From Promethearchaeota archaeon (lineage in GTDB: Archaea; Asgardarchaeota; Lokiarchaeia; Sigyniarchaeales; SOKP01), in NCBI GenBank assembly GCA_019058445.1, contig JAHPZA010000005.1, positions 1-64,000 on the forward strand: a stretch of DNA of 64,000 nucleotides. The letters run 5' to 3'. The notes beneath the pieces are model-generated. The model was not told where the DNA came from and did no database searches. It saw only the letters and a program-made list of their open reading frames with translations. Positions 60,850 through 63,775 of this stretch are shown here, piece after piece. The translations under genes and the position numbers were made by a program. The stretch's first letter is position 1; every line of letters starts with the position of its first letter.

Positions 60850-61623
60850 GTGGTTTCAAAGGAACAGAAGAAGTTAAATCGTGTGATGAATTTTCTAAAA
60901 AAAGGTTTATCCGGTTTAGCAGATGAGTTAGAAGGTACAATTAAAGGAATAAATGAATTCTTAGACTCCCTTCAAAAAGCTCAAAAAGATTTAAAGGGAG
61001 TCGAATCTGAAGAAGAAGTTGTTACTGTAAGCACTTCCTCTACGAAAATTGCTACTCCCAGTCCTGAGACTGCAAAAACTGCAGCTGCAAGTACGTTATT
61101 TAGTTTATTGAGCGGAACTGGAGGTGAAGCAGCTCCAGGCTCCGCACCAGTAGCAGCTGCTGCTTCAGGTGGACTTCCTAAAACGCCTTCAGGCGGTGGA
61201 CCTCCTAAAGCACCTTCAGGCGGTGGGCCTCCAAAGGCACCTCCAGGCGGTGGGCCTCCAAAGGCACCTTCAGGCGGTGGGCCTCCAAAGGCACCATCAG
61301 GCGGTGGGCCTCCAAAGGCACCATCAGGCGGTGGACCTCCAAAGGCACCATCAGGCGGTGGGCCTCCAAAGGCACCATCAAGTGGGTTACCTCCGGCTCC
61401 AAAACTTCCTCCTGCCCCTGGAACAGGCGCCCCTCCTACAGCACCAGGTGGCGTGAAACCGCCAGCTTTTGCAAAAAGAGCAGGACCTCCTGGAGCTCCA
61501 GGAGCACCCCCCGGTGGAGCAGCCCCAGCAGTAGCAGCTCAACCTGGCGGAGGTTTGAGTTCACTTAGAGATGAAATGTTGGATGAATTAAATCGTCTAA
61601 AGAAAATTATGCGTGGAGAATAA
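60850..61623 (+). CDS. Coiled-coil + Pro/Gly-rich repeat + C-terminal WH2-like helix protein (candidate actin regulator)
   Basis: N-terminal heptad helix; 7 x P[SP]GGGPPKA; LPPAPKLPPAP; C-terminal SLRDEMLDELNRLKKI. GAGGA RBS and GTG start. Confidence 0.8.
   Translation: MVSKEQKKLNRVMNFLKKGLSGLADELEGTIKGINEFLDSLQKAQKDLKGVESEEEVVTVSTSSTKIATPSPETAKTAAASTLFSLLSGTGGEAAPGSAPVAAAASGGLPKTPSGGGPPKAPSGGGPPKAPPGGGPPKAPSGGGPPKAPSGGGPPKAPSGGGPPKAPSGGGPPKAPSSGLPPAPKLPPAPGTGAPPTAPGGVKPPAFAKRAGPPGAPGAPPGGAAPAVAAQPGGGLSSLRDEMLDELNRLKKIMRGE
61186..61380 (+). repeat. In-frame 27-bp coding minisatellite, 7 copies
   Basis: CC[TA][TC]CAGGCGGTGG[GA]CCTCC[AT]AA[GA]GCA units at 61186, 61213, 61240, 61267, 61294, 61321 and 61348. 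Confidence 0.95.
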
Positions 61624-63032: not shown

Positions 63033-63401
63033 TTGGTGTGTTATTTGGAAGAACTTCCTGAAAAAAGTTTCAATAAACAAAGTATGATGAGTAAATACGA
63101 TTTATTTAACAAAATCAAGGGAATTAATACTCCTGTAAAAAGCGATATTTTGATTGCTCTCTTGGATGGAGAATATCATTCTGAGACAGAATTAATCAGA
63201 TTAGCAAAAAAAAGGGGTACAAATTATCTTGGAGCAGTAACTTTAGGAACCATGGTCAATTCATTGAATCATTTATTAAAAAGTAATTATGTAGAGAAAC
63301 AATTTGTAAATGGTGAAATGAATTATAAAATCTCCGATAATTATGTAGGCCTTACGCGAGCAGCATATAATAACTGGCAGCATAAAGCATTTAAATATTA
63401 A
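63033..63401 (+). CDS. Winged-helix-like protein, paralogue 1
   Basis: KSDILIALLDGEYHSETELI...YVEK...YKIS; the real start may be ATG at about 63084. Confidence 0.7.
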   Translation: MVCYLEELPEKSFNKQSMMSKYDLFNKIKGINTPVKSDILIALLDGEYHSETELIRLAKKRGTNYLGAVTLGTMVNSLNHLLKSNYVEKQFVNGEMNYKISDNYVGLTRAAYNNWQHKAFKY

Positions 63402-63406
63402 GGGGA

Positions 63407-63775
63407 ATGATTTTGGATAAATTAGGAAAAGAATTTAATATTTCTACACTTATGAAAATCGTCTTTAAACCAGAATATTCCAATATGTTCAATAAGATCA
63501 CTAATATAAATGCTCCTGTAAAAAATGACATCCTAATAACTCTTTTAGATGGGAAATACCATTCTCAAACCGAAATTATAAGACTCATTAAAAAAAAACA
63601 TCAATATCTCGGTCCAATAACTCTTACGACCATGATAGAATCTTTGAATAGTCGCACAAAAAATAATTACTTAGTAAAAAAGATTGTAAATGGAAGAATT
63701 TACTATAAAATCTCTGATAATTATGTTGGCCTCACAAAGGCTGCTTTTACAAAATTCAGGTTTGCAAATATTTGA
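63407..63775 (+). CDS. Winged-helix-like protein, paralogue 2
   Basis: KNDILITLLDGKYHSQTEII...YYKISDNYVGLTKAA; clearly similar to the upstream gene. Confidence 0.7.
   Translation: MILDKLGKEFNISTLMKIVFKPEYSNMFNKITNINAPVKNDILITLLDGKYHSQTEIIRLIKKKHQYLGPITLTTMIESLNSRTKNNYLVKKIVNGRIYYKISDNYVGLTKAAFTKFRFANI

Follow-up and report, generated by a model that had tools for sequence, protein, structure and literature searches.

A pan-Asgard C-terminal helix on a proline-rich, coiled-coil protein encoded beside an actin-related protein gene: a candidate docking element for actin-fold proteins

The DNA analysed here, referred to below as the window, is a stretch of 64,000 nucleotides (positions 1-64,000 of contig JAHPZA010000005.1, forward strand) from an AT-rich, Lokiarchaeia-type Asgard assembly of 4.6 Mb in 10 contigs, 92.6% complete. 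Close to its end lies a gene whose translation (60850-61620, plus strand) is a protein of 257 residues with the C-terminus ...AAQPGGGLSSLRDEMLDELNRLKKIMRGE, or ...QPGGGLSSLRDEMLDELNRLKKIMRGE. We refer to it as the Pro-rich protein; all residue numbers are those of this protein. It consists of an N-terminal coiled coil, a long proline-rich arm and a short terminal helix, the end helix, whose nature and possible partners are the subject of this report. The features of the locus are as follows.

60850..61623, plus strand: gene of the Pro-rich protein (open reading frame and translation); GTG start, 257 residues and stop codon; encodes coiled coil, Pro-rich arm and end helix
60874..60996, plus strand: N-terminal coiled coil, residues 9-49; helix 4-49 in the AlphaFold2 (AF2) model, with a predicted local distance difference test score (pLDDT) of about 90
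61024..61041, plus strand: TVSTSS motif, residues 59-64; T59, S61, S63 and S64 invariant in 38 homologues
61072..61116, plus strand: second short conserved helix, AKTAAASTLFSLLSG, residues 75-89; low-confidence AF2 helix at 72-87
61135..61545, plus strand: disordered Pro/Gly-rich arm, residues 96-232; pLDDT below 60
61546..61620, plus strand: C-terminal end helix, GGGLSSLRDEMLDELNRLKKIMRGE, residues 233-257; Gly-capped and amphipathic, read as a portable docking helix
61791..62909, plus strand: gene of an actin-related protein (ARP) of 372 residues; Pfam Actin at 4e-85; 40% identical to the Lokiactins of the source genome

Homologues of the Pro-rich protein were retrieved with residues 1-100 only, which kept the C-terminus out of the selection. 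This search gave 37 proteins, all from Asgard metagenome-assembled genomes (MAGs), and an alignment of 38 rows, on which the AF2 model was built and in which the homologues begin with MVSKEQKK at the same position. The gene is present in 35 of 41 related genomes. No Pfam family was matched by the whole protein in hmmscan, a search of the ESM Atlas by features returned no usable match, and a literature search found no publication that describes the family and none that prints the motif of the end helix. The sequencing data listed for the locus are metagenome DNA from sediment and soil, with no RNA data set among them. The Pro-rich protein is thus a member of an Asgard-wide family for which we found no published description.

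An earlier note on this DNA, made from the letters alone, had described the C-terminus as a WH2-like motif, i.e., a Gly-preceded amphipathic helix followed by LKKI. The helix itself is borne out by the translation and by the structural model. Residues 234-257 read GGLSSLRDEMLDELNRLKKIMRGE, of which GGLSSLRDEMLDELNRLKKI is residues 234-253 (nucleotides 61549-61608); position 61620 closes the last sense codon, so 61549-61620 spans residues 234-257. In the AF2 model, the end helix comprises 19 residues (236-254, pLDDT about 92), follows the Pro-rich region and runs through LKKIM. No other part of the protein is as constrained: the alignment shows no variation at 22 of the last 25 positions, and the majority residue has a mean share of 95% in the end helix, compared with 76% for the coiled coil and 49% for the arm. 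The string LKK alone is uninformative in this Lys-rich proteome, where it occurs 1575 times in 5074 open reading frames (ORFs) and falls within the last 30 residues of 251 of them; a stricter WH2-like pattern occurs three times in the same set, once at a C-terminus, namely in the end helix of the Pro-rich protein. It is conservation that lifts the end helix far above chance.

The same helix was then compared across Asgard classes in 22 sequences from about 12 families, among them Odin-size genomes and assemblies that their sources call Atabeyarchaeia and Heimdallarchaeum. L239, M243, E246 and K251 are invariant in this set, and E242, R249 and L250 nearly so, while the variable positions (237, 238, 241, 245, 248 and 252) all lie on a single face of the helix. 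The earlier note had staked its reading beforehand on conservation of LKK in homologues. LKK is kept within Lokiarchaeales; phylum-wide, the L and the first K are kept, and only the second K varies (K, E, S, A, T or R). In a census with a profile made from the motif only, 250 of the 301 Asgard genomes sampled gave a match, as did 80 of the 90 high-quality ones. A library of 1.84 billion protein representatives yields just 59 matching proteins at E<=0.001, and all named matches in a collection of 5.8 billion proteins are Asgard MAG proteins. The end helix is pan-Asgard.

At the other end of the protein, the N-terminal helix is a coiled coil, since its invariant or nearly invariant residues (38 rows) make an unbroken 3-4 heptad, with L9, V12, L16, L20, L23, L27, T30, I34, F37, L41, A44 and L48 at the a and d positions. 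The string NRVMNFLKKG, which the earlier note had offered as a second helix with LKK, is present at residues 10-19, but it is not a second WH2, because FLKKG lies within this heptad coiled coil and its LKK, conserved only in the taxonomic family of the source genome, is replaced in other Asgard classes (FLSKA, YFLEA, FLYEA, FLSEG). In the short helix at residues 75-89, K76, A79, A80, T82, L83, L86 and L87 are invariant among the 38 sequences; other classes have an acidic-plus-hydrophobic variant at this place (DSLFDFLEG, EDLWSLLTG). The arm between this helix and the end helix contains the conserved strings LPPAPKLPPAP (61387-61419) and FAKR (61468-61479), as well as seven to eight GGGPPKAPS units encoded by a 27-bp repeat (window 61186-61380), whose GC content in the GC profile is about 60%, against about 30% for the genome. 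The number of PPKAP units ranges from 1 to 7 per protein among the 38 homologues. The length of the arm thus evolves fast, with both ends of the protein fixed.

The end helix is found on a variety of other proteins. A membrane-anchored form of 270-350 residues, consisting of an N-terminal transmembrane (TM) segment, a coiled coil, a Pro-rich arm and the end helix, occurs in Thor-, Heimdall- and Atabey-type genomes. Ras/Roc-family GTPases bear the helix either C-terminally or in the stretch from the GTPase to a zinc ribbon of the form CPxCG...GIPCCxCF, and zinc-ribbon proteins carry two or three tandem copies ahead of the same ribbon. A 10-TM protein and a TIR fusion carry it as well. In the proteins with tandem copies, the C-terminal domain is modelled as longin-like, with VAMP7, Sec22b, Ykt6 and TRAPP subunits as the best Foldseek matches; in the AF2 model of a protein with tandem motifs, zinc ribbon and longin domain, the helices have a pLDDT of 50-60 and are not confidently docked in cis. 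The end helix is thus portable, a module that hangs on many carriers by flexible linkers, as docking peptides do.

Some of these carriers are of interest in their own right. The zinc-ribbon proteins form a family with the pattern CPxCG...NHxxYL...GIPCCxCF, often fused to a Ras-like GTPase and sometimes to a longin-fold domain, with one to three copies of the docking helix ahead. The source genome has several GTPase-zinc-ribbon paralogues (contigs C10 and C6) and a 163-residue protein with a degenerate helix (contig C9, 173184-173672, minus strand). The TIR fusion is a metagenomic protein of 549 residues, in which a TM segment and a complete Pro-rich protein, helix included, precede a C-terminal TIR domain (Pfam TIR_2, 6e-18). 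The TM-anchored relatives adjoin the gene of ribose-5-phosphate isomerase A in four distant lineages, in varying orientation and for no apparent functional reason.

The likeness of the end helix to WH2 (PF02205; WASP, N-WASP, WAVE, WIP, MIM/ABBA, Spire, Cobl, VopL) is one of layout and of core pattern. Both are short amphipathic helices with an R-x-x-hydrophobic-L-x-x-hydrophobic core, then L-K-K-[IV]; both follow a proline-rich region and end a protein with an oligomerising N-terminus; and both are portable and sometimes tandem. MIM/ABBA, for example, has an oligomerising N-terminus, a proline-rich region and a WH2 at the end. The solved reference was the WASP WH2, whose sequence is identical to PDB chain 2a3z_C, and the PDB search also returned the N-WASP and VopL WH2 sequences. 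By eye, R240-D-E-M243-L244-D-E-L247 overlays GRGALLDQI and GRDALLDQI of WASP and N-WASP, and the Arg-preceded hydrophobic triad is present.

Profile comparisons do not extend this likeness. Pfam WH2 gave no match at E<=10 on residues 225-257, on residues 200-257, on the whole protein, on distant family members or on the related type-B helix described below, and 0 matches at that threshold in the whole source genome. Aligned by hhalign to the solved WASP WH2, the end-helix profile gave P=0.18-0.19, a score equalled or exceeded by 70 of 300 shuffled peptides. A PDB-wide sequence search with the same profile returned only coiled coils, e.g., GCN4 (...EVARLKKLM), and no WH2 chain; xRLKK-hydrophobic is thus ordinary coiled-coil sequence. 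The spacing also differs: L247 is followed by L250 after 3 residues, whereas in WASP and N-WASP the L of LNKT or LKKV comes 6 residues after the I that is the last hydrophobic of the helix. The earlier note had rightly described the linker as shorter than canonical, and had rightly seen no acidic/Trp (CA) tail, as the protein terminates in MRGE. Moreover, the predicted helix continues through LKK, unlike in WH2, and the last K is not conserved across Asgard classes. Because two defining features of WH2 were tested and failed, the end helix is not filed as a WH2, and this part of the earlier claim is not supported. By any sequence test it is not a WH2 domain; the resemblance would be either convergent or too old to detect.

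As an alternative, the earlier note had suggested a coiled coil like the VASP tetramerisation domain (PF08776). That domain, too, is a helix at the C-terminus of a proline-rich protein and has charge pairs and a heptad-like spacing, but Pfam VASP_tetra has no match to the end helix at E<=10, the 19-residue helix is about half the length of the VASP coiled coil (residues 343-380), and the Pro-rich protein already has its long coiled coil at the N-terminus. This reading, too, lacks support.

A different part of VASP aligns better. The site for binding F-actin (FAB) of the Ena/VASP EVH2 region corresponds to human VASP 259-278 (PMC10340426). The end helix aligns to it without gaps (SLRDEMLDELNRLK), with hhalign P=0.007 and a probability of 5%, and 14 of 300 shuffles score as high or higher. 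Shared are the cap formed by a run of Gly, the ungapped pattern L-x-[DE]-E-M-x-x-x-L-x-R-x-[KR]-K, and a position after the proline-rich region of an oligomeric protein (here, the arm at 96-232 and the predicted coiled coil at 9-48). The order of the domains is nevertheless reversed, the coiled coil being N-terminal here and C-terminal in VASP, and the Pro-rich protein has no EVH1. The likeness to FAB is marginal, and another helical register aligns nearly as well.

The clearer resemblance to these elements is that of a second, related helix, which we refer to as type B. It ends a 122-residue mini-protein of the same plan as the Pro-rich protein, i.e., a coiled coil, GGPPGGPPPPP repeats and a terminal type-B helix (RPASPQSLRGAIMGELKQLFAKRKK), which is present in 39 of 41 related genomes. 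The type-B helix (SLRGAIMGELKQLFAKRKK) and the end helix are related by profile-profile comparison at P=4e-4. Against VASP FAB, the type-B helix (IMGELKQLFAKRKK) gives hhalign P=8e-5, and against WASP WH2 it gives P=0.003; in both cases 1 of 300 shuffles scores equal or higher. The type-B helix thus resembles VASP FAB and WASP WH2 more clearly than the end helix does. A PDB sequence search with its profile gave chance short matches only. In the source genome, the type-B helix also ends four Arf-like GTPase paralogues of 415-428 residues on contig C10, with tails ...SQVLNELKDLFAKKKSLDL, one of them after PPPPPPPP; relatives of these GTPases in other genomes match Pfam Arf. It likewise follows Pro-rich segments in a VWA protein and in a TM protein. 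The helix is strongly basic (LFAKRKK). A search for long fused forms of the mini-protein gave one weak match, proline-rich words crowding out relatives. The genes concerned are these.

Contig C1 of the source genome, 106032-106397 (equivalent to L110:1501-1866), minus strand: type-B mini-protein, 122 residues
Contig C10, about 628-631.1 kb, minus strand (reverse-complement offsets 69006-71841): three tandem genes of Arf-like GTPases with a type-B tail
Contig C10, about 674.7 kb, plus strand: a further Arf-like GTPase gene with a type-B tail

The genomic setting of the Pro-rich gene points toward actin-fold proteins in the family of the source genome. Where 1.2 kb or more of sequence is available downstream of the Pro-rich gene, the ARP gene follows it on the same strand in about 40 of 45 family loci (at least 9 genera), either adjacent (130-480 bp) or 900-1400 bp away behind one inserted PIG-L-family gene; the upstream corrinoid-protein gene, by comparison, is kept in only one other family locus. 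The source genome encodes two Lokiactin paralogues, one of them on contig C2 at 106651-107793, as well as several divergent actin-family genes. Lokiactin is 96-99% identical within the source family and 70-80% across the phylum. Of 46 genomes with canonical Lokiactin, about 40 carry the motif of the end helix, among them Odin genomes of 1.3 Mb. The motif-only profile had no match in 13 genomes, which belong to three families; five of the 13 were checked for actin, and their best match is only 51-54% identical to Lokiactin. The three families retain small gelsolin-domain genes.

Two further observations concern the neighbours of the ARP gene. The inserted gene between the Pro-rich and ARP genes encodes a PIG-L-family de-N-acetylase (at L030:2321-3064 and in about 25 other family loci), and all three genes are co-oriented. 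In the window, two tandem 122-residue paralogues without a Pfam match lie downstream of the ARP gene (63033-63775).

On these grounds we propose that the end helix would act as a free-standing amphipathic docking peptide at the tip of a tether formed by the oligomerising N-terminal coiled coil and the long, floppy Pro-rich arm. The end helix need not be the oligomeriser, because a 40-residue heptad coiled coil is already present at the N-terminus. We infer that its partner is one highly conserved protein. The reading that we favour, tentatively and as a possibility short of a probability, is that the end helix binds an actin-fold protein in its hydrophobic (barbed-end) groove, with Lokiactin as the leading candidate and, in the source family, perhaps the neighbouring ARP. 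Its action would be like that of WH2, VASP FAB, arcadin-2 or ParR; that is, an oligomeric scaffold would hold several actin-fold subunits on flexible arms, and the membrane-anchored relatives would tether such subunits to the membrane. This groove is ranked first because of the linkage to the ARP gene, the co-distribution with canonical Lokiactin, the FAB/WH2 flavour of both helices, the matching conservation of Lokiactin, and precedents in archaea and bacteria.

The precedents are arcadin-2 and ParR. The last 17 residues of arcadin-2 bind the groove of crenactin at 31 nM, and ParR binds ParM likewise; in both, a conserved C-terminal helix, encoded beside the gene of the actin-fold protein, occupies the hydrophobic groove and bears no likeness to WH2 (PMC5173319). 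The layout at our locus is similar to that of arcadin-2 from Pyrobaculum (PDB 5LY3) and of ParR, in that the protein terminates in a conserved helix of some 17-20 residues and an actin-fold gene is adjacent. Here, however, the linkage to an actin-fold gene is seen in one Asgard family only, and a coiled coil and a long Pro-rich arm are added; the systems are likened by layout.

What has been described for Asgard actins leaves room for such a protein. Profilins and gelsolins are described as the main known regulators, and the two-domain gelsolins contain WH2-like linkers of four residues, LRRV or LKDV (PMC7444086; bioRxiv 10.1101/2025.11.30.690169). These linkers are the only WH2-like elements reported so far in Asgard archaea, and they too belong to Asgard actin regulators; they lie between gelsolin domains, whereas the end helix is a terminal helix of 24 residues in a protein with no gelsolin domain. 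None of the gelsolin-domain ORFs of the source genome that were inspected ends in an end helix or a type-B helix. Profilins of Loki and Odin do not bind the polyproline of VASP, and some Heimdall and Thor profilins bind it weakly (PMC8410842). The Asgard actin papers that we consulted report no nucleation or elongation factor and no membrane-actin tether.

Several findings weigh against docking on an actin-fold protein. Binding of actin by the end helix is putative. There is no Pfam WH2 match and the hhalign score against WASP WH2 is at noise level; LKK lies three residues closer to the helix than in the solved WH2s, with its last K replaced by E, S, A, T or R in other classes; and the PDB profile search gives coiled coils only, the residues fitting a heptad with E246-K251 as a g-e' pair. 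The linkage to the ARP gene is confined to one taxonomic family. In 20 loci from seven other Asgard lineages, no actin-fold gene was found within 4 kb, and the neighbours outside the source family are unrelated housekeeping genes (NUDIX, ribosomal S25, RPE65, PhoU-like, scramblase-like, adenylosuccinate synthetase, Eco57I-type methylase, ribose-5-phosphate isomerase), none of which indicates a partner. The motif-less families may together make up one clade, in which case the phyletic pattern may reflect a single event. Carriers elsewhere, i.e., Ras-like GTPases, the zinc ribbon and longin proteins, point at least as much to a partner in GTPase function or trafficking. Finally, the text of the L. 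ossiferum study names profilin, five gelsolins and an ARF GTPase in the co-immunoprecipitate of Lokiactin (data in PRIDE PXD068820), and no Pro-rich protein of the end-helix type (PMC13716822). The enriched ARF GTPase, not further identified in that text, would count in favour of actin if it is the type-B-tailed Arf.

The carriers are also the reason why we rank second, though as a rather doubtful proposal, a partner that is not actin: the end helix would dock on a hub of the Asgard network of small GTPases, longin proteins and membrane remodelling, such as a longin or roadblock domain, a GTPase regulator or a part of ESCRT, with the Pro-rich protein as a tether. The fusions to Ras/Roc GTPases, the one to three copies ahead of the CPxCG...GIPCCxCF ribbon, the domains modelled like the longins of VAMP7, Sec22b, Ykt6 and TRAPP, and the four Arf-like GTPases of the source genome that end in a type-B helix are all consistent with such a hub, as is the lack of a nearby actin gene outside one family. 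Longin domains bind helical peptides, and complexes of VAMP7-Hrb and of delta-adaptin are among the fold matches. Nonetheless, these data indicate no particular partner, and the AF2 helices (pLDDT 50-60) are not docked on the longin domain of their own chain. The MIM1 consensus for binding to the MIT domain of Vps4 was considered and rejected by inspection, its register being off by one residue in the N-terminal half of the helix. A hub of this kind would also leave unexplained both the linkage to the ARP gene and the absence of the motif from lineages with divergent actins. Ranked third, because of its heptad fit, is a short self-associating zipper in the style of VASP tetramerisation, which would join motif proteins, such as scaffold, membrane anchors and GTPases, to one another or add a second point of oligomerisation that cross-links tethers. 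Residues 236, 243 and 250 can occupy d, and 247 and 254 a, with extra hydrophobics at e and g; E246-K251 makes a classical g-e' pair; the best PDB sequence matches are coiled coils, including the C-terminal EVARLKKLM of GCN4; and tandem copies could form an intramolecular bundle. We nevertheless consider a zipper unlikely. About 19 helical residues amount to 2.7 heptads, the lower limit for an autonomous coiled coil (that of VASP spans residues 343-380), Pfam VASP_tetra does not match, the protein already has its coiled coil of 40 residues, and the AF2 model shows no confident packing of the tandem copies. In addition, the invariance of M243, E246 and K251, and the near-invariance of E242 and R249 at solvent-side c positions, are tighter than coiled coils usually need.

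Two other explanations are of much lower probability. A true WH2 domain, homologous to PF02205 and binding G-actin through the helix and LKK, would account for R-x-x-[LM]-L-x-x-[LI]...LKK[IV] after a Pro-rich region, for the invariance of the L and first K of LKK, and for tandem arrays as in Spire and Cobl. It is made very improbable by the Pfam result (nothing at E<=10), by the hhalign value of P=0.18-0.19 with 70 of 300 shuffles as high, and by the lack of a WH2 chain in the PDB profile search; moreover, if the helix is in register, a linker three residues shorter means that LKK cannot reach its canonical site, and the predicted helix continues straight through LKKIM. We regard as similarly remote a membrane-binding amphipathic helix, i.e., a C-terminal membrane-targeting sequence in place of the lipid anchors absent from Asgard GTPases. 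MinD and FtsA have such a helix after a flexible linker, and to our knowledge Asgard GTPases have no lipid anchors. The end helix, too, is at the extreme C-terminus after a flexible linker, R240 and K251 flank its hydrophobic face of about 180 degrees, and it is present on small GTPases; the type-B helix is strongly basic, as its LFAKRKK indicates. The net charge of the end helix, however, is about zero, with E242 and E246 acidic and invariant or nearly so; the helix also ends proteins that are already integral to the membrane, i.e., the TM-anchored type and the 10-TM protein; and its invariance at the level of single residues exceeds what lipid binding needs.

Docking on an actin-fold partner can be stated in a broader form, which we consider somewhat doubtful: the end helix would be the actin-binding element of pan-Asgard tethers, whether oligomeric and soluble, membrane-anchored or GTPase-linked, that couple Lokiactin, and here the ARP, to membranes and to small-GTPase signalling. 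As far as we know, the shuffle-controlled FAB and WH2 comparisons, the phylum-wide census of the motif alone, the co-distribution with actin type, and the zinc-ribbon and longin carriers are new.

The Pro-rich family is nearly universal in Asgard archaea and is built like a small eukaryotic actin-assembly factor, with an oligomeriser, a proline-rich arm and a terminal helix. If the pan-Asgard tethers are what we propose, they would be a pre-eukaryotic counterpart of the WH2/VASP-FAB module, and the Pro-rich protein an assembly factor of the Ena/VASP or WASP kind that predates eukaryotes. With Lokiactin as the partner, the family would fill the place of a missing class of regulator, and WH2/FAB-like handling of actin would be dated to before eukaryogenesis. 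If the partner is a different protein, the end helix would mark a conserved, Asgard-specific hub that links GTPases, longin-domain proteins and membrane proteins.

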